Positions 20,101-52,229 of a DNA stretch of 64,000 bases are shown in pieces. The stretch spans positions 1 through 64,000 of IMG/VR virus record IMGVR_UViG_3300007708_000003, one strand, 5' to 3'. A program made the translations under genes and the position numbers. The first letter of the stretch is position 1; each line of letters begins with the position of its first letter. The notes under the pieces were generated by a model. It saw only the letters and a program-made list of their open reading frames with translations, made no database searches and had not been told where the DNA came from. This DNA comes from a virus.

Positions 20101-21082
20101 TGGTAAAAGTTCCTGAAATATATAATTTACCAAAATTATCTTCTAATAAAGAAGTACCTGCATAAGGAAAATTATTAAGTCCAGTTCCTGTAGCAAAAGA
20201 AGTGTCTATTTGACCATTAGTAAGAATTTTTACAATACCTTTACTTGCACCACCATCATAACCATTAAAATTTCCATATACATAATATCCTCCATTTTGT
20301 GCTAATTTTATAGCTACTGAATAAAGAAGATATCCTGGAGGTGAAGTGGCAGGTGTAAAAGCTTTCCCTGTAAAAAATGCATAAAGTAATTCTATTTCAT
20401 CAGCAGTTTTATTTACAGTAATTGTTTGTTGTAAACTTGGAGTAGTTATATCAGAAGTTAAAGCTATTGTACCACTTGCATCTGGTAAATTATATTTTTG
20501 TGTGGCTGTTAAATCAGTAGTTGATATACGAGCCATAATAGTACCATCCTTTGAAAGTACTGTTTGACCATCTTCATCCGCATTTGCATTTGCTCCAAAT
20601 AGGTTTACATTGTTGAAATTGTTAGTAAATCCAGCACTATCACCTAAAGCATTAACATTAATTCCTGTATTATTAACTCCAGCTCCTGTTCCCTGAAAGT
20701 TATTACCATCAACTAAATCATGGTTGTTGTCTAAAACTTGTTGCAATGTACTAGTAGGCAGTGCTGCTATATACGCTATAAGATCTGTTTGTGCTAATAT
20801 ATTACCTGTAATATTACCCCAAAGAATATTTGGTGTAATAACACTACTAATAGCATAATCTAACTTTTCAATTGCTGTAAGTACAGTATCACTTGAAGTA
20901 ATAGTACCAATAATTGGTACATAGTTATCCAAAGGTCTATCTAATACAACATCAATTTCTGTTATACCATTATATAATTTAAACCACTCACCTCTTAAAT
21001 AGAATTTTTTAAATCCTACATCTACATTTCCTGGCGTAGTGTTTAATTTTGCAAAATGTAATGGTACAATTATTTTTGACAT
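17111..21082 (-). CDS. Tail fibre/receptor-binding protein with delta-60-type beta-propeller repeats
   Basis: 1323 aa, Thr/Gly-rich; repeats such as KLNTDGSRDTSFNVGTGFN; fibre linkers LPDASGTIALTSD and FLRGDGTFA; C-terminal IAIALIFG. Confidence 0.8.
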   Translation of the reverse strand: MSKIIVPLHFAKLNTTPGNVDVGFKKFYLRGEWFKLYNGITEIDVVLDRPLDNYVPIIGTITSSDTVLTAIEKLDYAISSVITPNILWGNITGNILAQTDLIAYIAALPTSTLQQVLDNNHDLVDGNNFQGTGAGVNNTGINVNALGDSAGFTNNFNNVNLFGANANADEDGQTVLSKDGTIMARISTTDLTATQKYNLPDASGTIALTSDITTPSLQQTITVNKTADEIELLYAFFTGKAFTPATSPPGYLLYSVAIKLAQNGGYYVYGNFNGYDGGASKGIVKILTNGQIDTSFATGTGLNNFPYAGTSLLEDNFGKLYISGTFTTYNSVSANRILKLNTDGSRDTSFNVGTGFNDYTLDLDFNVAKTAVYVTGIYNTYKGVSQNRLAKLLLNGDIDSSFIIGSGFNNATISIAVNSDDTLFITSYATTYKGLAIPNIIKLLPNGDRDFSFVSTGFSPSGYQANYLLKTPDNKIIAVGTHTSYNGTPTNGIIKINQDGTIDTSFVAGTGFAGIVPPGGILVSSIQLVDNDTKYLCTGYFTSFKGVPTNGTVLIDLVGNIIETYVNQYSTSLYVNNALLSLALSGVNIDKLVFIKNNVEYLTLNQSLTFNKTNGKAEYNLSPNLVYEDLGQNELVPKKFINRSVAKTTSFTAANSGIYSTNGTITVTDAVPETNQGYIVYVVGGTTTIGGVGYTTGSLVYRFFNGTAWTSTNMNSVGGITSVTATSPITSSGGTTPVISTSMATNKLIGRSTAGTGVMEEITIGTGLSLSAGTLTNTATYTSPLTTKGDIFVRNTTVDTRLPVGLNTQILIADSTTPTGLKWGTNTATTPAGYYGAFSDVTDQFAAVINTGYPMLLGVTDLTNGVTVVSGSRVTIANTGIYNIQWSAQFRNPTAAEHDVTIWLRKNGVDVPGSAGVVLVPKKHGAFDGHTLPSWNFLLDPIAGDYYEFVWSTADTNVFISFEPAGSPPPSTASVVLTVTQQSGIMAGTGMTALTTTGASGASTYNSGTGILNVPTYTLNGLGGAPKDEFSGLTPISSAALLALANTDSLVIGQVYKVEETKFYNNLSTVYVYVKATSTSTIDEENAIAEFYDPKYDSYSIYNTTLQYNGFDYVIWGGLIWTNGASIVLPGANINNYELGGGFNIESNPLFYNVVMDNVSYSIEFEMIYSRRNHYCNFTCDSAILLIGNVKIRNMQWGNYYNSGTSTGLRGINCLNSDFNIINSRVILLTEITLINSFVAVGNNRILDDLVFANSGTFASPNTIANNISSRFFANTMTATVGGLVPTPPNNTTTFLRGDGTFAAPTGGGVTQAESIAIALIFG

Positions 21083-21098
21083 AATACAGAATGTGTTA

Positions 21099-21118
21099 CA
21101 TTATAATATACAAAATTA
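21099..21118 (-). promoter_or_regulatory. Candidate promoter for the tail fibre operon
   Basis: Minus strand TAATTTTG-TATATTATAATG: a TAnnTTTG element overlapping the GTATATTATAAT motif. Confidence 0.45.
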
Positions 21119-24100
21119 TTGATTACGTTTAAGTATGTCTATTCTATAATTAGGATCAAACATATCTCTAAAATTTTTATATCCAGTAAGATCTACAAAA
21201 TCTTTTGCTAATTTCATATCTCCTTTTTCATATGCTCCTGATTTTCTATTGTAGTATGCTTCTTTCCATATAGCAGTGTAAAGTTCACTGTCATATTCTG
21301 GATCTGGTTCTTCACCACCTTGCATACTTAATGCCATTATAGTACTTAATGCATGAGTTGTTAATTTCTTAGCAGCTGTAAGTTCTCGCGTATATGTGGT
21401 CAAACTTGTAAAGTTTTTAATATATTCAGAAGATCCTCCTCCTAATGGGAACATTGCAGTAGTTTCACCTTTTACACCCCATAAAAGTCTTATAGCATTA
21501 CCTTCAAGAAAACCTAATTCTTCATCATCATCATCTTTACGTCTTACATATTGTGTAGCAGCCATTGAAGCAATTGTTAATATTGCCATTGCTACAGCAT
21601 CTCTTCTTGCATGAGATATACTTCTAGTATATACTTTTCCTATTGTTGCAGTATTAATAGCTTTTGTGCCTTGTTTACCAAAATTAAAAAAATACTTAGT
21701 AGTTTCTACAAATCCATATGCTTTATATACTTTTGCTAAAGCTCTCCAGTAACCTATAGTTACCTCAGCTCCCTCCCAGTTAGGTCTAAGATATCCAAAT
21801 CTATTTAAAAATTGTGGTATAATATACTTTCTATAATAGAATACTAACTTACCAATTATATTTTCTTCAAATTTAGTTTTATCCCATCCTGCATAGTTAC
21901 CTTGTGCTCTACGCATTTCTGAGTAAATTATATTTCTAAGGAACTTTTCATCTTCTTTTGTAAACTCTACATCTTTTCTTATTTGTAATAATTTATTAGC
22001 ATCTTGATAATATACTTCATGTGCACTTACTGTCATATCAGTACCATCTGCATTTTTTTTGTATACTTTATTACCAGCTGTATCAGTAGTAAATACTTTG
22101 TATTTGTAACTATCTAATACAGAATACATTACTACAATACCTATAGCTCCATCACCTTTTTCTTGCACCATATATCCAAGCTCTACAGGATTCATAAATT
22201 TACCTATAGCTCTTCTTTCTCTACTTCCAGATGCCTCATTTAAATACTTATCAAATTCTTTTTGTAAAGGGTTGAATTTTCTATATAACATAGTAGACTC
22301 ACTTACATCATTTACTTTACCCCAATCAGCAAAATAGTTTGGCATAAATGTTCCAAAAAATTGTTTTTGTGCCCACATCCAGTTTTGTTTAGAATAATGT
22401 GAACTGTCATCTATACCACCTGCAGAAAGAAAAGATTGTACATTACCAGATATGTAGTTTTTAGTCTGGTTCACAACATCAAATCCCATTCTTACAAAAC
22501 TTGTATATGCCATTACTTGTTTTACAATTTTTGTAAGCTGTCTATTTTTTTCTTCAGGATTATCAGCTTGTCCATTTACAAACTTTCTTTTTTCATATTT
22601 TAAAATCTCAATAACCTTATTGATTTCTTTAAATCTTTTATTCCAATCTACTGTAGATTTTTTGTTTGTGACAGGGTCTATATATGTAAAATCTTTTGCT
22701 TGTATTTTATTTTGAATATTTTCAGATAACATCTCAAGATATTCTATTGTCATATTAGCAACTGGTGCTGCTTCTTGCATTGCTGCTTTATAATGTGCCT
22801 CACCTGCATAACGCATTAATGCACCTATACTATCAGTAGTCTGCAATGTTAATGGTAACTGGTTAGCTCCAGAAAGTCTTATTACATCACCTAAAGCTCC
22901 ATAACTATTATCAATATAATCTTGTTGACTACCTGTAGTTCTTAATTCTTTATCTATATACGTATCCATTTGTTTACGTATACTATCTGTAATACCTAAT
23001 GTAGAAAAGTTTTCTATTGTAGATGCTGCCATTCCTGGTACTAAGTATCCTGTTCTTCTACCATCAACTTTGTTCTGTAGTTTAAAATACATATTCATAA
23101 GTTGATTGTAAAAATTAAATACTTCAGGATTATTCATCAACTGCATGTATTTAGGATTTACTGCAGGAAAAGATTGACCTGTTAATGGATCTGTTATCAT
23201 CATGTTTTCCATACCTGGTATAACAGTGTATACACCATTTACTTCTTGTATGTTTTTAGGCATAGGAATACCATCTGCAGATTTTAAAAAGTTTTTATTA
23301 TATGCACCTTCAATAAACTCAAGTTCACCTGTTGCAACTAAGTCATTTAATTCTTCTTCTGTAAAGTTATCTATTTGTTCATCTGTAAGTTGCTCACCTG
23401 TTCTGGTATCATAATACTCATCTGTTCTTAAAGTTTTAATTCTATATCTACCACCTGGTTTTTCTTCCATGTATACAGATTTCATTTCATCAGATACAGT
23501 TCTTTGATAGTTAAAACCTTTAGGTATCTTATTATCCTTAAAGTAGTTTTCATCTTCTCTAATAGATTTATAAGTTATATTGTGAAAACTTTCATACCAG
23601 TTTTTGTACTCAGCTTCACCTATATAAAATTGATTTTCATATTTTAAATAGTCAGCTTCTAACTCAGCTAATCTTTCAGGTGTTGCAGAATCTCTTTCTA
23701 ACTGATATGCAACTGATGCATTAATATAGTTAGAATACTTATTTTCTAAGTTTCTAGTTTTACTTTTAAACTGCAAGTCATAATCTTTTACTAATGACAT
23801 TGTAGACATTTTATCTAATGCCATATTTAACTCAGATAACATTTCAGCATCTTCAGGTTGCATTTTTACTCTAGGTTTACCTTCTGAATTTGTAATAGCA
23901 TTTATCTCAACTTCTATTTGATCAAGTCTTAGTATAGTATTCTCATCTAAGTTTTTAATCTTAAGCTCACCTAATACTTTATGTGGAGCTAATAAGTTTT
24001 TTCTTTCCTCAAACAAATCTTGCAATACAGGATTTTCACCATAGTATATACTTAGTATGGCGTTTCTTTCATCATATATGGTACTAAGATCTTTGTACCA

Positions 24101-27100
24101 TTGATCAGTAGGTTTTACAACAGTATTTCTGTCTAACCATTTCTGCCATTTTTCTGGATCATCAATCTCATATTTAATCTTTGCATTTTGATATGCTAAC
24201 TCATATTTATTTGTGTCTTCTTCAAACTTATATAATTGATTGAACATGTCTATATACTTTTCATAATCAGGGTTTTGCAATTTTGCTTCCTGTTTAAGCT
24301 GTCTTAATTCATACTCAATCTGTTCTAGTCTATCTAAATCTTCATCACTTAAAAACTCTTCTGATGATACATCAAGACTTGCTTTTATAATTTCAATCTC
24401 ATGATATTTCTTTTGAAGTTCATTTCTGATTTCAAATGGTAACATTTTTTGAAACTCATAAAACTTTGTTTTATATGGTAAACTTGTATTATCTACAAGC
24501 CACTGTATATTAGCTTCTGTAAATACATTTCTTTCATTTATCTTATCATAGTATTCTTTTTCAAGATCTGTAAACTCTTGTGTTCCAGGTTCTTTACTTG
24601 AAAATGCAGCTTTTAAACTTTTAATTTCTTTTTGGATTTTAGCATACTGGTTTGAGAAATCTTTATAGATTCTATCATATTCATTAGAAGTAGGTTTTAC
24701 AAAATATCTTGCAGTCTTTTCTTCTTCCTGCATTGTTTCATAGTTAAAAACTTTTGTAGTTCTTTCTTCATGCATCATTTCATTAAGCTGTTGTAAAGTA
24801 TAGTTTTTTAACAACTCACCTTTTACTTTATCAAATTGCATAATAGCAAAGTCTTCCTGTACATTTTCTACAGCAATACTTTTTACATTTTTTAAGAACA
24901 TGGTGAATGCAGCAATCATTTTATCAGAGTTACCTGCAGATGCAATAAAGTTATCTAGCATCATACCATTCATAACACCATCTGGATTCATAATATCCTG
25001 TGCTCCTATGTATATACCTGATGCAGGATCTGTAACAGCATTGATATACTTTTTTAAAGAGTCTGCGTCATAGTTAAAATTTTGTCTTCCTCTAAGAGTT
25101 AGTATTTTAAATTCTAAGTCTTCAATTTGTGTTATTAAATCTTTTTGAGGCTGTGTAAGATTTTGTTGGAAACCATCTTTGTATGTTTTACTTAACATAC
25201 TTAATGTTGCATGTTTTAGTTTACTTAAAAACCCTGCAGATTTACCATCTTTTAAATCTTGTATCTTTCTTTCAAGCATCATTATTTCTATATCAAGAGG
25301 TTCCTTAGAAAGTTCTTTTACTCTTGACATTGTTTTTTCTCCAAGTGAAGCTAGTATTTTTACATTAGATTCCAAACTTACTTCAGCAAACATAGAGTTT
25401 ATAATCTCTATATTTGTTTTTAAAGCATTCATCTTTTTTACAATCTCACTGTTTTGATCCAGTTTGTTTTCAGGATTTTGCATTGCATCTCTAACAACTT
25501 GATCTAAAAGATTTACAATTTCAGACATTGATCTTGTTCTCTTAAATACTTGAGATACAACTTCAGAATGTTTTAAAAACTCACGTGTGTTAGATATAGA
25601 TTTTCTAAATTTTAATATAGCATCTGTTGCTTCTGTTAATGCATTACTGATTTCATTACTAGTAATTTCATGCACTACAGCAAAGTTGTGCATTAAGCGA
25701 TTATCAGATACAGAATGTGGCTTATTGTAGTTTTCATAAAATCCTTCTAGTGTTTTCTTTTGTTCTTCATATACACGTATAAGAGCAGGATTCTTTTTCT
25801 TATCTCTTGCATCCTGCAGTCTAGTTTGTACATCACGTATCTGTGAGTCAAACATGTTTTTAATTGTTTGAATTACTCTTTCATCTTGTTCTACAGTAGG
25901 TAAGAAGTCAAGTATTTTTACATCTTTCTTTTCTTCTTCTTCTTGTATTTCTTGACCAGTAGGTATTTCAAACTCAACAGCATTTCTAAGCTTAGTAACC
26001 TTATTACGTAGTGTACCTAGTTTGTCATCATCCATAGAAAGAAAACCTGCTACATAACCATAGTAGTCTTCAGTATCAAACATATGTACAGCTCTTCCTA
26101 ACATTTTTTTATTATCTTTATCCATCTGATAGAATAAAGCAATAATAGAAGAGTCTCCTCCTTTTTCTAATCCAGATTGTCTAAGTATGTTTTCATACAA
26201 CATCAGCTGTAAAGACCATGTGTCATATACAGTTCTTTTATAATCACTAGCTTTTAGTATATTAATAGATGCTTTTTTGGCAACAATGTCTTCAGCTTTA
26301 GTAAGAGTAGGAAAGTTTTTATTTGTCATACTCATTAATACACGTGTTACATTATCTAATTCTAACACGCCATCAATAAGAGGATCTTTGTCACCTAAAA
26401 GATTGCTTACTTTTTTAGTTTTAAAGTCATACACTTTGAACTTACCATTTGTATCTATTGCAAGTAAGTCAATTCTACCTATGATAAAACTATCTTCAGA
26501 TCTACCTTTACCAATTACAGTAAGCTCTGGTATAATAATATGTTCTGTACCTTTTAATGCAGCTATTTTTTCAACTACATCTCTTACCATATTAAACAAT
26601 TCTTTATCAGATAAGTTTTCTAACTGAAAATAATTTTCTTTATAGAATGCAGCTAAGTCATCTTCAAACAATTTATAATCTCCAACTACATCTGTAATTC
26701 TTTTATTATCTTCATTAGCTATCTTGATCACTTTATCTGCAAAGTTATGTACAAATATTCCAAATCTTTTTGTTTTTTCAAATTGAGATGTATCACCAAC
26801 AAAGTTAGAACCAATAAGATTTGTAACAGAGTTTTTATTTACTGCTACACCTTCTTTTATACTTTTATTTAAAGCTCTTTGAAAATCTTTATTAGACTCT
26901 ATAAGTCCTTTAATTGCAGCTGTTTGCGCTTTTGTATTTACTCTAGATTTTAAAACTTCTAACATTATCTGCTCTTCTTGCATTTTTTTTAAAGTAAATG
27001 CATCATTAGATTTGCGAATTTTATCATCTTCATTTACTAAGAGTGTAGCATCTAAAAGAGATTGTGCTGTAGCAGTATCAGGTATAACATCGTTATTTAA

Positions 27101-27187
27101 AGCAACAGCAGCTCTAGCAGCTGCAGTACTTTTTAAATCTGATACTAATGCATCAAACTCAGGACCAATAGGACATGATAAACTCAT
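21116..27187 (-). CDS. Giant virion cargo/ejection protein with N-terminal PD-(D/E)xK nuclease domain
   Basis: 2023 aa; GIFVH...PELTV...GRIDLL...VYDFKT...LQLMLY; long helical body; single Cys at residue 5. Confidence 0.75.
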   Translation of the reverse strand: MSLSCPIGPEFDALVSDLKSTAAARAAVALNNDVIPDTATAQSLLDATLLVNEDDKIRKSNDAFTLKKMQEEQIMLEVLKSRVNTKAQTAAIKGLIESNKDFQRALNKSIKEGVAVNKNSVTNLIGSNFVGDTSQFEKTKRFGIFVHNFADKVIKIANEDNKRITDVVGDYKLFEDDLAAFYKENYFQLENLSDKELFNMVRDVVEKIAALKGTEHIIIPELTVIGKGRSEDSFIIGRIDLLAIDTNGKFKVYDFKTKKVSNLLGDKDPLIDGVLELDNVTRVLMSMTNKNFPTLTKAEDIVAKKASINILKASDYKRTVYDTWSLQLMLYENILRQSGLEKGGDSSIIALFYQMDKDNKKMLGRAVHMFDTEDYYGYVAGFLSMDDDKLGTLRNKVTKLRNAVEFEIPTGQEIQEEEEKKDVKILDFLPTVEQDERVIQTIKNMFDSQIRDVQTRLQDARDKKKNPALIRVYEEQKKTLEGFYENYNKPHSVSDNRLMHNFAVVHEITSNEISNALTEATDAILKFRKSISNTREFLKHSEVVSQVFKRTRSMSEIVNLLDQVVRDAMQNPENKLDQNSEIVKKMNALKTNIEIINSMFAEVSLESNVKILASLGEKTMSRVKELSKEPLDIEIMMLERKIQDLKDGKSAGFLSKLKHATLSMLSKTYKDGFQQNLTQPQKDLITQIEDLEFKILTLRGRQNFNYDADSLKKYINAVTDPASGIYIGAQDIMNPDGVMNGMMLDNFIASAGNSDKMIAAFTMFLKNVKSIAVENVQEDFAIMQFDKVKGELLKNYTLQQLNEMMHEERTTKVFNYETMQEEEKTARYFVKPTSNEYDRIYKDFSNQYAKIQKEIKSLKAAFSSKEPGTQEFTDLEKEYYDKINERNVFTEANIQWLVDNTSLPYKTKFYEFQKMLPFEIRNELQKKYHEIEIIKASLDVSSEEFLSDEDLDRLEQIEYELRQLKQEAKLQNPDYEKYIDMFNQLYKFEEDTNKYELAYQNAKIKYEIDDPEKWQKWLDRNTVVKPTDQWYKDLSTIYDERNAILSIYYGENPVLQDLFEERKNLLAPHKVLGELKIKNLDENTILRLDQIEVEINAITNSEGKPRVKMQPEDAEMLSELNMALDKMSTMSLVKDYDLQFKSKTRNLENKYSNYINASVAYQLERDSATPERLAELEADYLKYENQFYIGEAEYKNWYESFHNITYKSIREDENYFKDNKIPKGFNYQRTVSDEMKSVYMEEKPGGRYRIKTLRTDEYYDTRTGEQLTDEQIDNFTEEELNDLVATGELEFIEGAYNKNFLKSADGIPMPKNIQEVNGVYTVIPGMENMMITDPLTGQSFPAVNPKYMQLMNNPEVFNFYNQLMNMYFKLQNKVDGRRTGYLVPGMAASTIENFSTLGITDSIRKQMDTYIDKELRTTGSQQDYIDNSYGALGDVIRLSGANQLPLTLQTTDSIGALMRYAGEAHYKAAMQEAAPVANMTIEYLEMLSENIQNKIQAKDFTYIDPVTNKKSTVDWNKRFKEINKVIEILKYEKRKFVNGQADNPEEKNRQLTKIVKQVMAYTSFVRMGFDVVNQTKNYISGNVQSFLSAGGIDDSSHYSKQNWMWAQKQFFGTFMPNYFADWGKVNDVSESTMLYRKFNPLQKEFDKYLNEASGSRERRAIGKFMNPVELGYMVQEKGDGAIGIVVMYSVLDSYKYKVFTTDTAGNKVYKKNADGTDMTVSAHEVYYQDANKLLQIRKDVEFTKEDEKFLRNIIYSEMRRAQGNYAGWDKTKFEENIIGKLVFYYRKYIIPQFLNRFGYLRPNWEGAEVTIGYWRALAKVYKAYGFVETTKYFFNFGKQGTKAINTATIGKVYTRSISHARRDAVAMAILTIASMAATQYVRRKDDDDEELGFLEGNAIRLLWGVKGETTAMFPLGGGSSEYIKNFTSLTTYTRELTAAKKLTTHALSTIMALSMQGGEEPDPEYDSELYTAIWKEAYYNRKSGAYEKGDMKLAKDFVDLTGYKNFRDMFDPNYRIDILKRNQ

Positions 27188-27188
27188 A

Positions 27189-29123
27189 TTATAAACATTT
27201 TATTTTTTCTAAAATCTCTTGATTTGTTAGGTTTGAACCTTGCAATATACTACTTATTTCTTTAGCTTGTATACCAAATTGTTCTTTACTAAGTCTAAAT
27301 GAACTTTGTCCATATAAGTAATTTACAACTTCTGGAGTTAAATTCAAACTATTAGTATCTAATTCTAAGCTGTCTACTTGTTTAGCTTCCATAATTTCTG
27401 CACCTGGTTCAGCAAAACTAAAATATCTATAACCTTTATTTGTAAACTTAAACACATCTTTAATAAATGGATCAAAGTATATAAAATCTACAAGGTCTTT
27501 TAACCTTCCCATTTTTAACTTAGCTTCATATATACCTTTCCAAGTTTTCCAGTAGTTATCAAACTCTTCTATACTGTCTTCTGATTCTTTTGTTCTTACA
27601 AAAAAGTCTACTACTGTTCCTGTTTTTTCAATATGTTTTCCTTTTTTAAATTTACCATCTATAACACCTGAAATTGTAATTGATTCACCTTTTTTATGAT
27701 CTCTACCTACAAAAGCATTTGTTATTTTAAAAGTAGGATATAAAGCTTTAAAGTTTTTATACCATGATTGTTGTTGTATAAGTGGTAAAAGTTCTTTTCT
27801 AACAAGCTCAGGCGTTAAAGCAGTGATGTTATCATTAACAATCTTTAATATCTCTTGATAGGTAGCTTCTGTTTCATGTAGTGACATTGGTATTACAATA
27901 TCAAAATCATGAAATGCCTCATCTTCAGGTCTATATGTTTTACCATATTTTCTTGTTGCTGCAGAACCAGATAATTTAGGACCAATAGTTTTATCTTTGT
28001 TAAGATATATGTTATTTAATATATTATTCATAATAGACATGGCAACAGGATCTGAGTTGACTGATTCTTCATAATCTTTTAGAACTAACTCTTGACCTTT
28101 AGGTGTAATAATCTTATCACCTACCATTTTAAATCCTCTTGTAAACTTAACATAATCTTCTTTATATATATCATCAACCATATCTAATACAAGGTCATTT
28201 AATTTGTCTATATCATATTTCTCAAATCTTTCATTATTAAAAACTTTTTCATTAAGCCAGTTTAATATTTGATTCATCAATCTGATTAATACATTTCTTT
28301 CATATATATTTCTAAATCCTCTTTTTTCAAAGTATTCTTTTGTAACATCTTCAGACAATCTTTTTGTATTAGGTGTAACACCTAAATCATTAAATGTGAT
28401 TAATGTTTGATGTATAAACTCTACAATAGCCATCTTTTTAGCAAAAGGATTTATACCTCTTTCTAATTCATTATTAGCTTTACCCATCTCTTCTGGAGTA
28501 AGGTCCATATAATCTTGTATACTATCATCTAAGTTTTCATATTTATACTGATCATGTATAGCTTGAAATCCTGACCACTGTTCTATATTAAACCACAAGT
28601 CTTTACTTAACTTGTTTTTTCTTCCTAGCATTTCATACATGATATATGCAGCTTGTTTAGGAAGTTCTATTGTTTCTTTATTACTTGCAATAGCTACAAA
28701 CTTTTGCATAACATCTACAGCTGATACAAGACTTTGAGAATTTTTAATTTTGTTTTGAGTTTGTACTTTTAAAAATTGTTCTGCATTAAACATTATATCA
28801 AAGTTCAAAGCTTCTAAAAACTTTTTAGATGCTTCAACAGGTGTATTTTGAAATTCAGTTTGTGGTATAATTGTTACTGGCTCCTGTTTTTCAATTGACT
28901 GTTCATTATTATAATATATTTCTACAAGACTTTGAGGCACATATATATTTCTATCTAACTTACCAGTTGAAGTTTTTGAAAATGTAACAACAGTATCATT
29001 AAACTTTTTGTTTACATCTGCAGCAACTTTAGTTGCATTGACAAGTGACATGTTAAATGCATCACTTGTCATCATCTCAATCTTCTTGGTAATATTCTGT
29101 TTAATTTTTATTTTACAAGGCAT
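27189..29123 (-). CDS. Virion cargo protein with putative Pol-beta-superfamily nucleotidyltransferase domain
   Basis: LSGSAA...HDFDIVI...VDFF...AKLKMGRLKDLVDF; Cys only at residues 3 and 643. Confidence 0.6.
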   Translation of the reverse strand: MPCKIKIKQNITKKIEMMTSDAFNMSLVNATKVAADVNKKFNDTVVTFSKTSTGKLDRNIYVPQSLVEIYYNNEQSIEKQEPVTIIPQTEFQNTPVEASKKFLEALNFDIMFNAEQFLKVQTQNKIKNSQSLVSAVDVMQKFVAIASNKETIELPKQAAYIMYEMLGRKNKLSKDLWFNIEQWSGFQAIHDQYKYENLDDSIQDYMDLTPEEMGKANNELERGINPFAKKMAIVEFIHQTLITFNDLGVTPNTKRLSEDVTKEYFEKRGFRNIYERNVLIRLMNQILNWLNEKVFNNERFEKYDIDKLNDLVLDMVDDIYKEDYVKFTRGFKMVGDKIITPKGQELVLKDYEESVNSDPVAMSIMNNILNNIYLNKDKTIGPKLSGSAATRKYGKTYRPEDEAFHDFDIVIPMSLHETEATYQEILKIVNDNITALTPELVRKELLPLIQQQSWYKNFKALYPTFKITNAFVGRDHKKGESITISGVIDGKFKKGKHIEKTGTVVDFFVRTKESEDSIEEFDNYWKTWKGIYEAKLKMGRLKDLVDFIYFDPFIKDVFKFTNKGYRYFSFAEPGAEIMEAKQVDSLELDTNSLNLTPEVVNYLYGQSSFRLSKEQFGIQAKEISSILQGSNLTNQEILEKIKCL

Positions 29124-29133
29124 GACTTTTTAT

Positions 29134-32100
29134 TTAACAGGTTTCAGATGTTCTATCTATTGAAGGTAAACCTTCAGGATTATTCATTGCAAATTTATCA
29201 CTTGCTAGTTTAAGTATTGCTATTCTATTACCATTGTTTGAATCCCACTGCATTAACTTACCAGTCTTATCAGATAGTATTTGTTGTTTTTCATTTACTA
29301 CATACTTGGTATTGTCATATGTAACTACAACAGCACGCTTTTGTAATACAGCAACATTAGCAAATATCTTATATCTATCTACACCATTTTCTTTGAAGAC
29401 TTCTTTACCATCTTTATTGATAATCTTAGATCCTCTTACAGCATATATTTGTTCTTCTTTACCTTTAGGCGTATATCTAACAAGTATTTCTTTAGGTGAT
29501 TGTGATACTATTTCAGTTAAAGGTTTAGTAACATCTTCAGCAAAAACTTCTTCTTCATATAATACATCAACATATGTCTTAATAGCATTTGTTGTTCTTC
29601 TGCCTGTAGCAATTAAGTTTCTGTAAACTTGTGTTTCTTCTTGACTTAATGTACCAGGGTTAAGAGTGTCTGAGTATGATACATTCTTTTCTAACTTAGT
29701 ATAATTAGCTTTGTAACCTTGAGTATTAATACCTGTTTCAATATTATCCATAAAGTTTTCAGCAAGTGAACTGTATGGTTTTGAAAACTCTTGCGATTCT
29801 TCAACACTTTCTAGTACAAATGTTTGATTATCTATTTTAATAAATGCAGGAAACTCATATACTAATGTTTGATAGTTATACTTTACACCAAACTTTTGTG
29901 CAATTAGCTTATTAATATCATCACTAATACCATCAGTAGATTTTCTAAAATCAAAATTAAGAATATTACTTCTTGTAGATGCTTTAAAAGTTGGTCTACC
30001 ATAATTGTTAGATAATCCAAAAGTAACACCTGAAACAACGCCATCTAAATGTAATTTGATTTCACGTCTAAGAGTATCTTCATAAGCTTCTTTTGGTGTT
30101 GCAGCTTTTAACTTCATCTTCTCTTCATTTATGAATTGTGATTCATAATTGTTTTCAAAAAAATATAATCCTGGAGCTTTTAGATTAACTATGTCTTCAG
30201 AACCAAGTATAGCAATTGTGTTAAATATATTATTCAATACTTCATATGTTCCTTCTTTGTTTTCAGCTGCAATAAAACTTTGTATTACTTGTCCAAAATC
30301 TTTTACTTCATCACCTTTAAGTTTATCTGTAAAGATATTCATGAACTTTGAAACATTTTTAATGTACACAGGATCAAGGAATTGCAAATAAGAATTAGCT
30401 TTATATAACAAACCTGTTCTTGCAAGTTCATGATAAAAAAGTTTACTCATAAATAAAGGTTCTGCAGATGATAAATATTTAGCATCATTTGCAATAGTAT
30501 TTGCAAGATCACCTGCTACTTTAGATTTAGTAGTAAGTCCTATATATGATTCAGTTATTCTTCTATTATCACTTGTTAAAGCAACATTTTTAGTTTTATA
30601 TTCACGTAAGAAAGACAAGAATTTATTGTTAGGATCTTTTTCTTTTAGCTCTGCTAATTCTTCACCTAGACCATGTGTAAACCAATATCTTGCACTAAAT
30701 GCATTTCTTAAGTTATCATCATCCATATCAAGCATTAGTTGATGCATGTCATCTGCTGCTTTTCTACTACCAGGATACTCTGTTCTAAACTTATATAAAG
30801 AAAGCATAGATGTAAGTGTATTAGCAATAATAGACTTATCTTTTAAGCTTGATTTAAATAAGTTAGTAATACTTCTAAAGTAAGGACTTCTTTCTAAGAA
30901 TATTCTACTTGCTTGTTCTTGAAGATCACTTACAATTTCATATTGTACTGACCAAAGTTTATTTTTACTAAAGATTGTGTCTACTATGTCATCTTCTAAG
31001 AATAGTTGTTTAGTTTTTAATTCTACTATGTTTCTATACATGAACTCAAAAGAATTAAAATCAGGTTTAAATGACTTAATAGTATTAATCAAAGATGCTA
31101 TCTGAGATAACTGGAATGATTGCAACCCTTGTTCTTTTATCATCTGTAACAAAATAATCTTTTGTTGCACATCTGATAAAGGTGTGATTGTTTTACCTGT
31201 TATTTCAGTAGTTACTTTTTTGTTTTTAGTAACAGTTTTTTTAATATACTGCAGAGATGAAACTTTTATACCTAGGTCTTCAAGTGACAATGTGTTATTT
31301 AACCATTTGTTTTTATCTAACTCAGATGGGTTAAACTCTAGTACAATATTTTCTTTATTGATTTTAAAATTAGTAACACCACTGTTTCTAGGTATAACAC
31401 CTTGTGCTTTTAATACATCTACAGCTGTAGGATCTGAAGCAATAAGTTTTTTAATTTCAGCATTCAGTGCTCTGTATATACTTAATGACTGAATAGCTTC
31501 ACCTCTTGTAATAGCTTTAGTTGAACTTAATACTTCTTGTGTAGCATTAATAAACTCAGGTATTCTGATCATGTTAAAAATTAAGTTGTCATCTAAACCT
31601 AATGCTGTAGCAGATAGTATAAAGTTAGAATTTGCATCATTTACACCAAGAAGAGCTGGTATTGGATCATTTCCTGCATCAGCAAACATACCAATACTGT
31701 CTCCTACTTTTTGTATAACTCTGTTACCTTTTTTATCTAAAATTCCATATGCACTATGTTCAACAAGTTCATAATCTACAGGTTCTATACTACCTTCTTT
31801 ATATATAGGAATATTATACTTAAATACAACAGCATCTTCTTTAATGTTTCTTTTACCAGGTTTAGTATAAAGATTTATAAAAGAAACTGTTTTATTCATT
31901 ACAGCAGCTTTACCTAAATTTGAACCATCAGATTGACTCATTGATTTAGATGCAATTGTAGCTGCTATAGTATGATGATCATATGGTACGTTATTAGCTG
32001 TATTATTATAATCAACACCTTGATTTGTAAGTACAGCTTTGAAACTATCTGCAGATGCTTTTTGATTTGAGTATAAGTTCTTGAATACTATCTCATTAGA

Positions 32101-35100
32101 CAGTATATCCATTGCACTTGTTAAAAGGTCATTCTGATATACAGGTCTTACTGAATATCTATACTCTGGTTTTTTGTTAAATGTGTTAAGAGATGTAGGT
32201 AAATTATATTTACTAAATACTTTTAGAGTAGCTTCTGTTTTTAACAGTGTTCTATAAAATTCAAAAGCACGTTTGCTCTTATCATATAGTTCAGTTTTTG
32301 CAGTTTTAACAGCATCTATTTCAGCTTGCTTTTCTTTAATCTCAGTAAATATAGAATGCAACTGTCTTCTAGCAACATTATTATTTTTGTTTTTGTTTAG
32401 TTTTTCTTGTAGTGCATCTATACCAGATCTTAACTCATGTTTTGCATCAAACAATGGACCATATGAATCATTATAACTTTGTATAACAGCTTTGAAATCC
32501 ATCTCAGACATTTCTAAATAGTTTTCAAAATCATCTTCTGTAAAGCCATAAAGCTTCATTAAGTTTTTAGCTGCAGTGCTCATTTTATAATCATCAGACT
32601 CTGACAACTTATCAAACTCTGATCTTATAAGTGTTCTGAGATCTTTATCTTTTAACTTGTACTGCATAAATTCTAAAAATCTACCTTGCTCTTCATTAGC
32701 ATATTGACTGTAATCTCCATATAATACAGTTTCACCTTTGAAATCTTCATAAGTATTGTACATCTGAGTGTACAAAGTATCAATATCAAAATCAGAACCT
32801 GCAAGATAGTGTGCTAATTGTGGTAATATAATAGTGTTACCATGTGCAGAGTTTACAAAATCTACAACTTTAACAACAATCATTGAACGCTTGTCCTCAG
32901 TAGGAACACGTTGACCAAAAAACTTGTTAAGTTTTTCAAGATAATATTCTTTTTCTTCTGTACTTGCAAAATATGGCATTGCTACAATAGCTTCTATAGT
33001 GTATACTTTAACACCTTCGCTGTTAATTTCTACACTTACACCAAGAGGTCTTACATGATTGTTTTCATATAGATCAGGATCAGCTTCTATTACTTCTTCT
33101 CTGATTACATTGTTGTTATCATCTACTGTAACATTGTGTCCCCATGAACTTGCATGTATAAACTTGGTCCCTGTAGATTTTTCATCAGTGGCTTTACTAT
33201 ACAATGAAAAGAAGTAGTACTCTAACATCTTTCTTATTGTACCAATGTTTTGATTTATAATAGGTTCACCTTTAGCATCTGTTTTAAATAAATCTTTAAC
33301 ACTGTCTGGTGCATTTTGTGCATCAAGGTTTTCTCTTATAATATCATATATCTGACCTACAACAAGATTATTATTCTTATCTCTTAAAAATGTTTTAGCT
33401 AAATTAAATCCAGCTTCTGCACTGTCATGCATTGCTGTTTCATATCTGTTTAATGCACTTAACAAAGCATCATACTGTAAAGACTCTTCTTTAGTAAAAT
33501 CTCTACCTATAATTTCTCTCATATGCACAATATCTGCAGGAAGTAAAAGTTTTCTTTGTATAGAAATTTTAGATTCATTTTTAACTTTAGATGTTTCTAC
33601 CTGGTTATACTTCCATTCATTGCTTACCAGCTGAGAAGCTATCTCTAAGTTTACATACTCAGAGTCTTGATTCATTTCATTATAGAAATCAATAGGAAAC
33701 ATAGTAGTAGTCTTAGATGCTGTTGGATCAACAACCTGATCAACACCATCTAACTCCATACTGTTTAATAATACATGTAATTCTTTCTTACTCTTTTTTG
33801 CTTTAAAATATTTGTGAGCTTCTTTTATAAGCCTCTGATTTAATAATGCAATATCAGATATACCAGACAGCTCATTGCTTAAACGCATGTTCTGCATTAG
33901 TATTCTGTTGCTGTATATTTCAGAATATATCTGATGCAATTCATCATATGTATTTGCAATGTATTCATCTTTTTGCTCATCAGTTAAACCAGAAGGAACA
34001 ATTAATGTACTCACATCATTTCTGTCAATATAGTCTTCTGATAATTTAAAATATACTGTTCTTGAACCTGTAGCTGTCTTCTTAGGGTTCATGATAATTT
34101 TATCTTTTTTCAGTGTATTAAACTCTCTTTCTGTTATATCTCTATAATGTTTTGCAATAAGTATATCTGTTGCTTCAGGTGAAAGTTTTCCAATAGCTTC
34201 AAAACCATCCATCTGATGCATAATTGATGAATAACTTTGTCCATCAAACACATCAAACATATATGGTTTTTTACCAAAGTTTTCTGCTAATATAGCTTTT
34301 GTTGCATTATCAGTAAATGGATCATTGTTAATTTGATCTATTGAATAATACTGACCAGCTTCTACATATTCTGGATGTAAAAATACTTGAAGTTTATTAA
34401 GTGTAGCAACTTTATGAAATCCATTTTTAAAGTTATTACCTGCAATAATAAATCTTTTGTTTCTTTTAACTAACTGTACAGCACCTTTAACATTCAATGC
34501 TTCATCAGCATCAAACATTTGATTAAACATCAAGGAGTTGTGCATGTGATTAAATACTTTGTCAAAAAGAAACCCTTCAAGATTTATAGATGTAAATGCT
34601 GAACTTGGTTTATAAGTTTTAGTAGCTTCATCATAAGTCATAATTGCTTCTTTACCAGTACCTTTACCATATAAAGAAGACAAGTCTTCTAATCTAAAAC
34701 CTAATTGTATTTGCTGATCATCTGTGATAAAATCACTTGTTATCTTTTTAGTAATGTTTACTCTACCACGATCTTGTTTAAATATACGCTCATTTGTTTC
34801 TTTATTAACACCAACAATTTCTGCAGTATCAACATATTTTATTATACCTTGTTTAGCATAATTTTCTACAGCATAGTTAAACTGATCATATGCATAATCA
34901 TCCAATGTATCTAAAAACTTTTTAGTCTTGTCATCATTATATAACTCATCAAAGTTTACCTGATTAAAAGGTACACCTTGTTTAGCACTATTAATAAGTG
35001 ATTGCTTAATACTTTTATTGTTTTGAAAATACTTAGGTAACTTACTAAAGTTATATGCTCTTAAACTGTTATCTTTTTGATCTTCTACATCCGCAGTTTT

Positions 35101-38100
35101 ATCTTCATTAAAAATAGCATTATACTCACCTCTAAGCATATTATACTTTCTACTATCATATGCTTCTTTTAATACTTTTCTTCTGGACCACTCTTTTCTT
35201 ATTCTTTCATACTCTTGTCCAATAACATTTTTAAATGTATCAGTAATCTTTAATCTACCATTTACTTTGATAATACCTTTTGAGTCTGCAAATTGCTCAT
35301 ATAATCCTGATACTAAGAAGTTAGTTGGAGATGTTTCATTCTGACCATACTGACGCATATAAGTATATATAGTGTCACCACTCTCTGTTACTATCTCATC
35401 CCTTTTTAAGAAAGAGTATATGTCAAGTAAGTGCATGTCTCTTTCTTGCAATTTATTATATGATGTTCCACTGATAGGTTTACCATCTACAAATTGTTGA
35501 GTACCACCATATAAGCTTATGTCAAAGTTTTTGATAAATGTATTTAACTTATCATAGTTTCTTTTAGCTAATTCTCTTGCAGCAGTTTGTTCTGCAGTTT
35601 CACCTTTTTTCTTTTTAAAAGCTGTTTCAGGATTAGGTATCATCAACTGAGATAACAATACATTGTCACCATAAAAAGATTCTAAAAAGTTGTTAAACTC
35701 AAAATCATCTTTTACAAAATCTACAAATCCTTCTTCTCTTAATGTTTTAACCATATAGATAAGAGGAGTATATTTTACATATCTGTATATAAGTTTACCC
35801 TCAGCATTTCTTACAACGCTTGGTAATTCTGTTGGATCATATTTTACAATATACTCAGAAGCTTTTCTAAGAATAGAATTGAATGCACCATACTCTTTTG
35901 ATGCATCATCAAATTTCTTATTTAAAACAGCAGGAGCAGGTTTTGCTTTAAGTATATCATAGACATTGTTAAAGAAACTTTTAGTCAAATATTTATCTGA
36001 CTTTATAAAGTTCTCATTTATTTCTAAATGATTTTTTACAGTTTTATTGTATATTGAAACATTTCCACCATTTTCTTTTGTTTCAATGCCTATAAGAGAT
36101 AATCTAACTAATGACTTAGGAACATTTAGTCCTACATCTTTCATTGCAGTATGCAATCTTTCAGTAAGTTCTTTTAATATTTTATCATTATATTTTTTAC
36201 CTGTATCTAATATTAATTTTTGAGTTTTGATTTCTGCTAATATATACACTAACTTTTGTATTTTATCTTGATAATCACTAGATGTATACTCATTATTATA
36301 TTTATACAAGAAGCTATCTACAATATCTTTTTTCTTTTTGTTAATGTCTTCATATAAGATTTTATCTTTTAAAGAAATCTTACCAGCTGCAATATAACTA
36401 TCACCCTGTTCATCTACTTTGTTTTCAAAAGACAAGTTAAATAACGCGTAGTTCATTGCTGTAACATGCAATACTTCAACAAACATATTATATAACTGTT
36501 TGTTTTTTGTTGCCATGTTATTACTATCCAGACCAGATGCTTTTTTAAGATTGTTGTATATGGTCATGATGTCATTACCAGCTTTTACATTACCATCATT
36601 AATCATAATCTCAGCTGCATTAAGCAACTGATCAATAATTTTATCAGGTTTAACATCACTAGTAATTTTTAACAATATTGGAAACAATGTAGCACCATCA
36701 ATAACACGTGGAAGTTTTACACCAATATACTTTTCATGTGGAGCATAGTACATGTTGATAGCTAAGAACTTCTTAATCTGATTTGGTAAAGACTCTAATG
36801 TATTCTTTTGTACAAAATTATCAAAGTCTTCAGTACCATCTTCACCTAGTTCTTCATCTGCAGTATCTTCAACATCTTTAACAACCTCTTGTTCTTGATT
36901 GGCAATGTTTTGCATTGTTTCAGCATCAACGCTTGTATCATCAGCTTCCTCTAATTCAGAAAGCAAGTTGTTCAATGTTACGTATTGTTTTTTAACAGTC
37001 TTACGTAACAAATCATTGGATACTTGACCATTAGTATTATCTAAAACATCTGTTGTTAAACTGTCAACATAGTCATTTGCTTCAGACATGAAGTTATAAT
37101 TTTCATCTCCTGTAAGGTTTATATCAAATACTTCTTTGTTTTGAAGTTTAGCTCCTAGTATAAATCTGTATTGTTTGTATAAATCATTTAACTCCTCAGT
37201 AAGTTCATCTTTACCTTCTTGAGTATTTTCTTGTGCAGTAACAATATTTATATCTAGCACATTGTCTAATAAATGTTTTGTAGCAAGATCAAATTTCTCA
37301 TCAAAAGATAACTTAGTATTGTTATTGTTTAATACTTCATACAACACCATCCCAGTCAATTGATTTGCATGGAATGAGTCAAGTGTGCTATCTTTATACT
37401 CTACTTGATTTGTAATACTATTATTGTATATAACAGGTAGTCCTGGTATTGCTAGATATTTAATATTACCTTCATCTGCAATCTCAGCAACTTGTCTGTT
37501 TGCATACTTACCACGTTGTACATTTCTAAATGTAGAATCTATTACATCAGAGTTTCTGCTAAACATTCTTAATAAGTTGCTTAACATCTTAAAGAATCTT
37601 TCCAATAATGTTTTTGGAGCATTCTCTTTAATCATATAGTTTTGGAAAGCATCAGCTAATATTTCTTCAGCTTGAAGTTCTCTTAATCTTTCTAATGACT
37701 CTGTGTAGTTTCTATCTTCAGCAAATTTATTTAATGCATCTTCAGTAAACATTTTTGCATACTTAGAATTGTTATACACAGATTCTAATAATGCTTGTCT
37801 TTCTCTTGCATTCATCAAGTATTTAAACACTCCGTGGAATGCTTCATGATATGCAGTACCTTTTGCTTTTAAAGTATCATTTAAGTATATAAACTTATCT
37901 TTTATAAAACCAAGTACAGTAGGATTGATTTCTGTTAATGCATTAATATCTTCTATATCTAAAAGATTTAATCCAAACATTGAGTATGTTCTTTGTAACC
38001 ATGCAATCTCACTTGCCCATTCTTGTTCTGACGCAGTATCAAAACCTTCACCTATATCTATAGAAAAATAGTTATGTAAACCACCTGATTTTTTAATAGG

Positions 38101-40708: not shown

Positions 40709-43700
40709 TTAGCATCCAGGCTCGTCATGAATGTCATTGATTTCATCAAGTAATGACTGATCACCCTTCTCTACAAATTTACTACTTTTTTTGGAAATAT
40801 CACTCTTTGCTTGATTGTAATCTTCTAAAATAGATTGAATATCATTGTTTTGTATTTCTGTTGGTGCTGTTTCATCTACTGTAATCTTAGCATCTTCTTC
40901 TACTTCAGTTACATCACTCATGTTAAAAAAGTCTTCAAAATCAACAGCGTCTTCTTCATCAAACTCATCTGTTACAACAGCTAATACATTCTTACGCATT
41001 TCTTCTACTGAATCTTTTACAGATGGTATTCTTGAAAACATGCTTAGTAATTCAATAGTACCATTTACTTCTTTATTATATTTATCCATAGCTTCAATAG
41101 CTCTAGACATAAAAGCATTTATTAAATCTTCATCTTCAGTATTCAGATAATCTTTTACAAACTCTCTGTTTTCTTTTTGTATTTCAATTTTGCGTTCTAA
41201 TTGATCTCCAAATATACTATCAAAGTCTACAGCTCCAGACATATCATCTGCCATCTCTGTGTAGTCTTCATCTTTTTTAAGTTTGTTATCTTGTTCTTTC
41301 TGAAACTTAACTTCCTCTTCTTTTTGAATATCCATTTTTCTTTGAACAGGAACTTTATTCATTAAATCTTGTTCTTCAGAAGTAAATTTATTAATAGTTT
41401 TACCATTAGGTTTAACCATCTCTCTTACAAGTTCTTCAGCTTTCTGCATATCTACTGCAGGTTCTACAGGTTTACTTTCTAAAGCTTTATATTTAGTATT
41501 AATTTTATTTATTGCTTCTTCTCTTGTATATCCAAGTATTTTATCTTTTCTATTTTTTAAATCATCTTTAGTAATTTCTTCTGAAACAAATGCTCCTGCC
41601 CAAATTCCTCCATATCTATTAGGAGATAATTGATGTAAATTAGAAATTTCTTTTTCCTTTTCAGTTTCTATATTAGAAACAATAGGAGCTACTTGTGATG
41701 GAGCTGTACTAGCAGGTTGATTAGGTTGACTGTTTACATCAGTAGATGTATTACTGTCTTGTGCTTTAGCTTTATCTAATAATACTTTAAGAGTTAATTC
41801 TTCTGCACCTTTTTTAAATATGGTAGCATTGATTTTATCTACTTCAGCTTGATACTGATCTTTACTAATCTCTTGTTTACCAAATCTTGTTTTAAGAGCT
41901 TTGTATGCAGGATTAAATTCTCTAACCATCTCTAAGGTTTTTATCTTAGATGCGTCAGACATAGATAAAAATTCCTGCACCATTGACTCAGGAGAAATAA
42001 CTTCAACAGATTTTGCTTCTGTATCTTCTTCATCATCTTCAATAACAGGAGTTTTTATAGTTGATGGATCTGGAATATTTTGTACAGTAGTTTCACTAGG
42101 TAGATTGTCAATTTCTGCTTTTAATGTTTCTGCTGCCTCAACACTAAGAGGTTCTTCATTTACTACATCACCTGTAGCAATATCAACAACATCTGCTGTA
42201 CCATCTTCATTTTGTACAACATTAACTTTAGGAGCATATCCTATTATACCTAACTCTTGAATTTTATAATCTATTTGTTCTTTGTATATAGGATCTTCAT
42301 ACAACTTTGCCTCATTAGGTAATAACTCAGTATTATTCATTATCTTTTCAGCAATAATTAATAGTCTGTAGTCATCTAATGATTTCTTTTCTTGTATGTC
42401 ATTCATCTCACCTTCAGTAATGTCTTCATTGTATTGCTGAGGTGTATATTGTTTTATTGCTTTATGTACTTCTAATGATATAATTTTCTCAATCTCATTA
42501 ACATATTTCTTAGCATCTTTATATGCTTCTATTCCTATCTTAGGATCTGTGATAATAATGTTTAATGCAATGTATGCGTCAGATTCTTTTACTCTATCAA
42601 ATATCTGTTGGTATATTTCATTTGCAATTTTAAAATGTTCAACAGGATCTGCAGATACATTTGATGCAATGCCACTACTAACTTTAACAACAGCTTCTTC
42701 TAGATTAGATATTAATGACTCTAAGTTATATTTAAATAAACCTGCCTCTGATCTTTTAACCATAGACATAAATTTATCAGGATCAGATAATACTTCTACA
42801 GCTCTTAAATAGTCTTTAGAATCTTTATCTAATCTAATGTAATCTACAATTTTTTCAAAGCTATCATTAAGAGCACTTTGACCTAACTCTGAATCTAAAC
42901 CTGCTTGTGAATTTTTAAGATTAATAATCTCTCTAAATAATTTAGATATCTTTTTGTTTTTAATATCCCATGTTTTAACTGGTGTCCAAAGTTTTTTACC
43001 ATCTGCATTTTCAACTCTTTGTTTTTTGTTTTGCTCAATACCTGCAAAAACAAAATCTGTATGTTCTACAACACCTGTTACTTCACTACGTTGTTTCCAA
43101 AGTTTTGCCCATTCATTTAATAAGTCAAGTTCTTTCTTAGTACTTTTTAATTGCTTTTCAGTTTGCTTTTTAACATCACCTGTAAGATTACCTTCTTCAA
43201 GTGTAGTGTTAAGTTGTTTTATTTGAGACATCACTGTATCAATTTCATTTGATAAAAATGATGGGTTACTCAATACACGCATTGCATAATCAGAAGACAT
43301 AGAAAGACCAGGAATAGCTGATAAATCTGCAGTAACACCTTTCAACCTTTCAGCTGTCATGTCTGCTTTAATAGCATTCATTGCAATAATAGATATAGCT
43401 TCTTCTTGTGCAGCTCTTGTATGATTTGCAATAGTTCTGTCTATAGTTCCTTCTTGGTATGCTTGAGGATCAACTAATTTATTTTTTACACCTCTTTTCA
43501 TATCTTCAATGATATTAGTGTATTTTTGTAAATCACTTGCTACTTTTTCTGCATACTCTTGTGGAGTATTATAATTTGTATCTGCAATATCTATATTAAA
43601 TTCTTTTTGGAATGCTTCAGCAGTATAATCCTGCCCCATATCTCTAATAGCACTTACAAAACCCTTAATAGTATTTGTTCTATATGCAGCCATAGTTGCT

Positions 43701-48415: not shown

Positions 48416-48430
48416 GTATTTATTTTTTTA

Positions 48431-52147: not shown

Positions 52148-52186
52148 AAACTTCTAAAGTTTAAAGGTTTGATATTAAACATCTTA

Positions 52187-52207
52187 CATTTAGAAGATAC
52201 AAATATA
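52187..52207 (-). promoter_or_regulatory. Candidate promoter
   Basis: Minus strand TATATTTG-TATCTTCTAAATG: TAnnTTTG plus a degenerate late motif, intergenic. Confidence 0.35.
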
Positions 52208-52229
52208 AGTTGTTTTTTCCAATTATATA

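Follow-up and report, generated by a model that had tools for sequence, protein, structure and literature searches.

Crassvirales are among the most abundant phages known, and the roles of their giant cargo proteins beyond transcription are largely obscure. The ADP-ribosyltransferase (ART) Alt of phage T4 is directed into the capsid by an N-terminal sequence that is cleaved, and once delivered with the DNA it acts before phage gene expression. Iyer, Burroughs, Anand, de Souza and Aravind (2017) reportedly described polyvalent proteins, in which several effector domains are strung together and travel with the DNA of a phage or conjugative element. Among crAss-like phages, gp47, gp50 and gp49 of crAss001 were detected in virions by mass spectrometry (PMC10172136); outside that group, cryo-electron microscopy of the phage A4 pre-ejectosome revealed a disulfide from the near-C-terminal Cys1715 of gp27 to Cys5 of gp26 (PMC12002296). 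On the bacterial side, the AbiEii/DUF1814 toxins are nucleotidyltransferases (NTases) defined by hG[GS]x15DhD, an extra Arg, a KLxAaxxR motif III and a family-specific ‘+DxxD’ motif IV (Dy et al. 2014, PMC3985639). Here we analyse a 64,000-nucleotide viral stretch (“the window”; positions 1 to 64,000 of IMG/VR record IMGVR_UViG_3300007708_000003), and in particular gene P0001 on its minus strand, whose 644-aa product we term the link protein. We consider it probable that this protein is a Cys-tipped link of a cargo chain that delivers an NTase at the start of infection. What is new here is the enzyme family and the cassette slot that it occupies; in the literature searched we found no account of either an NTase or a cysteine chain among crAss cargo proteins.

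The link protein consists of four parts, a head, a zincin-like domain, an NTase domain and a tail, which map to the window as follows.

28860..29123 (-): head adaptor, residues 1-88 (MPCKIKIK...), C3 at 29115-29117; common to links with other middles; predicted local distance difference test score (pLDDT) 74-90
28122..28856 (-): predicted zincin-like domain without metal ligands, residues 90-334
28626-28676 (-): helix ETIELPKQAAYIMYEML of the zincin-like domain, the former HExxH helix, with K156-Q157-A-A-Y160
27414..28121 (-): predicted Pol-beta-fold NTase domain, residues 335-570, from fold matches and conserved motifs
27963-27968 (-): motif I, G386-S387
27930-27932 (-): R398
27900-27908 (-): motif II, D406-F-D408
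27606-27608 (-): third carboxylate, D506 (VDFF)
27486-27521 (-): motifs III/IV, K535-L-K-M-G-R540-L-K542-D543-L-V-D546
27192..27386 (-): tail adaptor, residues 580-644 (..NLNLTPEVVNYLY...EILEKIKCL), C643 at 27195-27197; common to links with other middles

Every motif named for this open reading frame (ORF) in a first-pass annotation, made from the letters alone, was found at its place once the coordinates were translated, as were the cysteines at both ends; C3 and C643 are the only two in the protein.

A model of the whole protein built from 24 sequences was poor (pLDDT 63). A 50-sequence alignment gave a two-domain model of residues 90-580 with a pLDDT of 91.8 and a predicted template modelling score of 0.90 (protein residue = model residue + 89). 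By strand assignment in this model, L384-S-G386-S387 sits at a strand-helix junction (strand 294-296, helix from 297, model numbering), D406-F-D408 opens the next core strand (317-322) and D506 falls within a later strand (414-421). Residues 335-570 matched MenT1 (8an5_A) with a Z-score of 6.2 and a root-mean-square deviation of 3.6 over 153 of 194 residues. Other fold neighbours were MenT3 (6y5u, Z 5.8), ANT(2'') (4xje, Z 6.0), LnuA (Z 5.4-5.5) and the Pol beta palm (Z 5.7), and terminal uridylyltransferases (TUTases), CdnC and poly(A) polymerases were also found. A Z-score of at least 5 was reached by 121 of 998 chains, and those listed over residues 335-570 were almost all NTases. The first, whole-protein model retrieved the same structural families; across both models, ANT(2'') scored Z 6.0-7.2 and LnuA Z 5.4-6.9.

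The conservation counts come from some 140 homologues, most of them standing for clusters at 50% identity; outside the motifs, their sequences diverge down to about 25% identity. G386, S387 and R398 were each present in 143/143, D406 and D408 in 142/142, D506 in 141/141, and K535 and K542 in 139/139; R540 and D543 were kept in 137/139 and D546 in 138/139. Because they are invariant or nearly so, we consider these motifs to be under selection. Consistent structural matches, coverage of whole small enzymes and motifs in the right places together lead us to assign the NTase fold. The first-pass annotation had proposed that fold from the motifs; the confident model, with GS at the strand-helix junction, DxD and D506 on strands and almost exclusively Pol-beta NTase neighbours, agrees with it. 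From the model and the conservation, the domain is very probably catalytically active. Protein-language-model neighbours, which were phage poly(A)-polymerase-like and ANT(2'')-like clusters, belong to the same superfamily and are a lead only.

Like AbiEii and MenT (DUF1814, PF08843), the domain combines a predicted Pol-beta fold with ‘+DxxD’, preceded by possible counterparts of the extended spacer between G[GS] and DhD, the extra Arg and the Lys-bearing motif III. In P0001 this layout reads LSGS-x18-DFD with the invariant R398, then K535-L-K-M-G-R540 and K542-D-L-V-D546. The K...GRLKDLVDF string picked out in the first-pass annotation thus contains, as K542-D543-L-V-D546, a match to motif IV as defined by Dy et al. 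2014. MenT1 and MenT3 are also the solved structures that match the domain best and most completely. The spacings differ, in that motifs I and II are 18 rather than 15 residues apart, the Arg lies 8 residues before D406 rather than the 4 of AbiEii, and K and R of motif III (A534-K535-L-K-M-G-R540) are spaced by 5 rather than 7; motifs III and IV are contiguous, unlike in AbiEii/MenT. The setting differs too. AbiEii and MenT belong to bacterial defence or toxin-antitoxin loci, whereas this domain is encoded among phage cargo genes and shares its polypeptide with a zincin-like domain and Cys-tipped adaptors. No cognate antitoxin (AbiEi/MenA) lies beside P0001, where the neighbours are cargo giants of 3849 and 2023 aa. 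PF08843 was not found in six frames of the phage's own genome, and none of the 50 aligned family members matched PF08843 or the AbiEii or MenT models of NCBIfam/PADLOC (E ≤ 5). The earlier placement with AbiEii/MenT therefore stands for motif IV and for the MenT1 and MenT3 fold matches; membership of the AbiEii Pfam family does not follow, and since P0001 fails the hidden Markov model (HMM) test for that family we do not file it there. We read the NTase domain, from motifs and modelled fold, as a distant unannotated relative of the MenT/AbiEii lineage.

The N-terminal half of the model, residues 90-334, resembled the N-domain of edema factor (6uzb_H, Z 5.8, 157 residues aligned), lethal factor (1j7n, Z 5.4), Certhrax (4fxq, Z 5.3), PPEP-3 (Z 5.1) and PprI (Z 4.8). 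Overall, matches to the zincin folds of lethal factor (LF), edema factor (EF), Certhrax, PPEP-2/3 and PprI reached Z 4.5-5.8 over 93-158 residues and were consistent, none of them clear of background. HExxH is absent from P0001 and occurs in only one of 176 aligned segments. Across the family, position 157 is E (99 of about 170 sequences) or Q (60) and position 160 is Y (89) or H (42), the first His being lost. The single intact segment is a second copy of the domain in P0102, a fused relative of 2366 aa, at residues 786-894; it has HEAIH, and its GHEAIHLF aligns with ETIELPKQAAYIMYEML, so active-type and decayed copies coexist in the family. One alignment member matched the NCBIfam metalloendopeptidase CpaA (E 1.8e-4). 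We therefore predict that residues 90-334 form a decayed zincin domain, as the first-pass annotation had suspected on seeing the same helix. The inactive zincin-like N-domains of anthrax LF/EF and of Certhrax likewise lack the metal-binding histidines; in contrast to a close kinship with them, the Z-scores are modest, there is no sequence similarity and nothing points to a partner of the protective-antigen type.

The link gene lies third in a run of four.

40709..45802 (-): first chain member, 1697 aa; only Cys is the last residue (40712-40714)
29134..40683 (-): upstream partner, RNA-polymerase-bearing giant, 3849 aa; only Cys are C3 (40675-40677) and the final residue, C3849 (29137-29139)
27189..29123 (-): link gene P0001, 644 aa; starts 10 nt past the stop of the 3849-aa gene, with 1 nt between its own stop and the start of the 2023-aa gene
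21116..27187 (-): downstream partner, 2023 aa; PD-(D/E)XK domain at residues 134-259; only Cys is C5 (27173-27175)

C3849 of the polymerase giant faces C3 of the link, and C643 of the link faces C5 of the 2023-aa protein. Across the four consecutive proteins, cysteines occur only at such mutually facing ends, with no internal Cys in 8213 aa. As Cys makes up 1.58% of residues in the other ORFs of the genome, 638 Cys-free internal residues have a probability of about 4e-5, so the terminal-only pattern of the link is not due to chance. The pattern extends to homologues. We examined 118 proteins bearing the zincin-like+NTase module, classing those that end no more than 130 residues past it as standalone (51) and those continuing more than 400 residues further as fused (55). 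Standalone proteins had a C-terminal Cys in 47/51 cases and an N-terminal Cys in 47/51, whereas a C-terminal Cys was found in 8/55 fused ones, and distant relatives in which the module is fused to the downstream giant have no Cys at the junction. Internal cysteines of module-bearing proteins numbered 23 in 168,474 residues. The split or fused state changes at least 22 times on a module tree built with FastTree only, and in 13 phylogenetically independent contrasts the C-terminal Cys followed the gene break about 10 times and opposed it about 0.1 times (median p 0.002).

By sequence, the pairs C3849/C3 and C643/C5 show the same geometry, a near-C-terminal Cys to an early Cys, as the gp27-gp26 disulfide of cyanopodophage A4; it is kept in 47/51 standalone homologues and in all loci. 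A4, which is not crAss-like, differs in having a single link inside a pentameric ring, with no four-protein chain, enzyme cassette or shared adaptor modules. Terminal cysteines also mark the crAss001 cargo (gp47, C2339 of 2341; gp50, C5 and C2404 of 2412; gp49, C5), and gp50 and gp47 share segments with the 3849-aa protein of the window. crAss001 differs in that gp50 has one internal Cys, no separate link gene is present and the zincin-like+NTase module is undetectable in the genome.

The family of P0001 is large: 29 close relatives, 31 IMG/VR loci, and 380 clusters at 50% identity (E ≤ 1e-3), 212 of them at E ≤ 1e-10; some of the database proteins are fragments. Its conserved unit is residues ~90-580. 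In most of the distant relatives this module forms the N-terminal part of a 2000-2700-aa protein, and it is sometimes internal to proteins of 3000-6000 aa. The C-terminal portions of several fused giants resemble the 2023-aa protein of the window, so that the 644 + 2023 pair is one protein elsewhere; Pfam searches of four fused giants returned no domains past the module. Searches with tblastn of P0001, P0125 and P0103 against 50,697 GenBank phages found nothing. An extreme fused state is seen at L006:113-18394 (+), where one 6093-aa ORF joins the polymerase giant, the zincin-like+NTase module and the downstream region; its sole Cys lies 3 residues from the end, and the next protein begins MKC.

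A second group of database proteins shares only the first ~85 and last ~65 residues of P0001, keeping both cysteines, and has different middles: none (P0105, P0137), ART-PolyVal (P0129, P0135; Pfam E 5e-12 and 3e-10), a GHKL ATPase (P0138) or an unassigned region (P0136, P0139, P0140). IMG/VR scans for ART-type and GHKL-type links returned no loci; a metagenome scan with an alignment of such links did, yielding nine, of which we examined seven, within L037-L045. The downstream protein was an orthologue of the 2023-aa protein in 7/7 loci, with 64% identity in the close relative L044 and 30-36% elsewhere, end to end where the contig allows. Upstream, the giant was an orthologue of the 3849-aa protein (31-33% identity) in the four loci long enough to compare; L038, L039 and L044 retain it only as a Cys-ended C-terminal fragment. 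Between these neighbours, the following link architectures were found.

Window, L044, L040: head + zincin-like + NTase + tail
L039 (920 aa): head + zincin-like + NTase + ART-PolyVal + tail
L037, L038: head + ART + tail
L042 (161 aa), L045 (195 aa): head + tail only

Every version has a Cys at position 3-5 and a penultimate Cys. Because the seven loci keep head and tail and vary the middle, the window's clade always has a link, whereas the enzyme it carries can be swapped or done without. The position between the two giants, polymerase-bearing and terminal, acts as a cassette site. The first-pass annotation had proposed that a Cys at both ends lets an accessory cargo join the chain as a plug-in link, and had pointed to related genomes without the gene, or with other enzymes bearing the same terminal Cys, as the place to look. 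The syntenic loci, in which identical kinds of Cys-tipped ends enclose the NTase, the ART, both or neither, favour the plug-in link. The word ‘accessory’ holds in the window's clade only; across the family as a whole, the terminal giant regularly includes the module, which is then no accessory. The idea that the link tail is a copy of the polymerase tail was dropped when the tail HMM found no match in the flanking giants. Elsewhere, at L004/L005:16676-18112 (+), a 478-aa Cys-tipped link (C3 ... C478, also C118 and C119) lies between a module-bearing 2342-aa protein and one beginning MFC, indicating that extra links occur at other junctions too.

The module content recalls polyvalent proteins, which also combine zincin-like peptidase, ART and nuclease domains; the alternative cassettes of the slot are ART-PolyVal (PF18760), and one BFVD neighbour is annotated ‘Large polyvalent protein-associated domain’. 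Here, in contrast, the string is cut into separate polypeptides with Cys ends and dedicated adaptors, and the zincin-like domain lacks HExxH. To our knowledge, this NTase domain has not been described among the modules of polyvalent proteins. With T4 Alt the locus shares the notion of an injected enzyme effector, ART being an alternative cargo in the link slot; Alt relies on a cleaved targeting sequence rather than on Cys-tipped adaptors and an end-to-end chain.

In the mechanism that we propose, the link protein would be packed in the capsid with the virion RNA polymerase (vRNAP) and tied to both neighbours by disulfides from C-terminal to N-terminal Cys. It would be threaded N-to-C into the host as part of one string and freed by reduction in the cytoplasm, whereupon the NTase would attach a nucleotide to some target, of host or phage origin, just as infection begins. 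By analogy with MenT, whose motifs the domain resembles, our first guess for that target is an RNA 3′ end, most likely of tRNA, serving host takeover or counter-defence; this is the weakest step of the scheme and a rather doubtful one. An effector role seems likelier than one in the mechanics of entry, since the slot can instead house an ADP-ribosyltransferase, a classic example of an enzyme that phages inject to modify the host. More broadly, and tentatively, at somewhat short of an even chance, head and tail may be general docking adaptors of a plug-and-play slot through which phages exchange NTase, ART, GHKL ATPase and other enzymes, each held by two reducible disulfides and released in the cytoplasm. 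That would make the NTase the first representative of the MenT-like toxin lineage to be delivered by a phage, a bacterial anti-phage weapon turned into a phage weapon.

Other roles for the enzyme have to be weighed against delivery of an effector. The NTase might serve the phage's own nucleic acids, tailing or repairing early transcripts of the co-delivered polymerase or acting with the PD-(D/E)XK domain on the leading genome end. Fusion of the module, in most of the distant relatives, to a terminal giant homologous to the PD-(D/E)XK-bearing 2023-aa protein speaks for this, as do the Poly_A_pol_cat family carried by the nearest language-model clusters and the presence of Megavirus poly(A) polymerase, TUTases and Pol beta/lambda among the fold matches. 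A module that is dispensable and can be swapped with an ADP-ribosyltransferase or with nothing in the window's clade better fits an effector, however, the matches of best coverage are MenT1 and MenT3, and ‘+DxxD’ is specific to DUF1814 according to Dy et al. (PMC3985639); we regard such a role as unlikely, if worth keeping in mind. We think it very unlikely that the domain is a small-molecule or signalling NTase akin to ANT(2'')/LnuA or the CD-NTases, producing or consuming a nucleotide signal, or modifying a metabolite, to blunt host defence. Its fold neighbours do include ANT(2'') and LnuA at the Z-scores given above, CdnC (Z 5.1-5.2) and CdnB/CdnE (Z 4.5-4.6), and an ANT(2'')-family cluster scored 0.89 in the language-model atlas search, but these Z-scores are tied with those of RNA-acting enzymes, the motif II Arg and ‘+DxxD’ match DUF1814 instead, and several invariant basic residues (R391, R398, K535, R540, K542) suit a nucleic-acid substrate.

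It is highly improbable that the protein is a structural spacer only, its NTase-like domain a catalytically silent relic like the zincin-like domain. That neighbour has demonstrably lost its active site, and the middle-less links of L042 and L045 indicate that the adaptor role needs no enzyme; the near-invariance of the catalytic-type residues in ~140 sequences, which is not how a relic evolves, contrasts with the decayed zincin helix of the same proteins. The remaining alternative concerns the ends rather than the enzyme: the terminal cysteines, with head and tail, might act not as disulfide couplers but in packaging, as capsid-targeting or scaffold-binding signals, or in binding metal or another partner. 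The head and tail HMMs matched neither the termini of the flanking giants nor crAss001 cargo, so no docking partner is evident from sequence. Against this stand the Cys at both new ends that tracks gene breaks, the lack of a junction Cys where proteins are fused, the scarcity of internal cysteines and the same geometry seen as a disulfide in phage A4 (PMC12002296), and we hold it to be quite unlikely.

Delivery of an NTase by a Cys-tipped link, the reading we prefer, has evidence of its own to contend with. The structural Z-scores for residues 335-570 do not exceed 6.2, which is middling on the tool's calibration, and Foldseek against the PDB gave only E ≥ 0.016, with matches of the NTase half at E 0.03 or worse. 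P0001 and its family had no match in Pfam, PHROGs or PDB sequences by phmmer or profile search, and the 50 members searched against Pfam, NCBIfam and PADLOC gave single weak matches only (Polbeta E 0.02, NTP_transf_2 E 0.067, and the CpaA match above); to these is added the failure of the AbiEii and MenT models. A six-frame profile search of crAss001, phi14:2, cr1_1 and phi17:2 did not find the module, so the virion evidence is borrowed from orthologues of the neighbouring proteins. Loci without the NTase were viewed over ±10 kb, and absence of the enzyme from the ART-only and empty-link loci holds for that span, with a copy elsewhere in those genomes possible. Finally, a toxin-like block of tRNA would hurt phage translation too unless it were selective.

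The analysis names a large enzyme family, unannotated by any profile library tried, links it, through its motifs and modelled fold, to bacterial toxins directed against phages, and places it in a slot where effectors swap between otherwise collinear phages. The adaptor-flanked cassette makes the disulfide chain a sharp prediction, namely two specific Cys-Cys peptides per link, and the adaptors hint at a natural means by which phage particles could be made to carry and deliver foreign proteins. If the enzyme does modify tRNA, the phage would be injecting a translation-targeting enzyme alongside its own polymerase.

The phage record that includes the window is 98,360 bp long; its genes for terminase, portal and major capsid protein share the strand of the link gene and lie upstream of it. 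The closest relatives of its terminase are Crassvirales, at ~26% identity, and the source is a distant crAss-like phage. At residue 2631 the 3849-aa giant has DFDID, the polymerase motif of crAss type, and the surrounding region shares 44% identity with crAss001 gp50, which makes the label vRNAP, given to it in the first-pass annotation, reasonable. Through residues 892-1064 and 2583-2641 it joins segments that in crAss001 are split between gp47 and gp50. The PD-(D/E)XK nuclease domain of the 2023-aa protein was recognised by Pfam (E 2.2e-6); this protein matches gp47 of crAss001 at residues 191-261 and gp49 at residues 1759-1870, and therefore the chain members of different crassviruses differ in how their domains are distributed, as if reshuffled.

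Immediately downstream comes a 1323-aa protein (17111-21082, minus strand) in which Pfam recognised four DUF5122 beta-propeller repeats (E 1e-32); it has internal cysteines and probably lies outside the chain. Upstream of the chain, three cargo-like proteins of 869, 1238 and 688 aa (window 45806-54296, minus strand) have no Cys at all. The 549-aa major capsid protein and the 419-aa protein next to it (genome 82205-85140; L032:4205-7140) are also Cys-free, and the tail and fibre proteins are rich in Cys, with 30 in 738 aa and 42 in 986 aa. A division between capsid contents free of Cys and an exterior rich in disulfides thus seems to run through the whole genome. Many chain proteins open with M-x(1-3)-C-[PI]-x(3-6)-[FW]-x-x-L, for example MATCPIKSDPNFQRL and MANCPNKNTAEWKQL, a pattern distinct from the MPCKIKIK head. 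It is seen in the window at 27145-27187 (MSLSCPIGPEFDAL) and in loci L017-L024 and L029-L031, P0025-P0030 and others, and may be a second, more widespread N-terminal coupling element.

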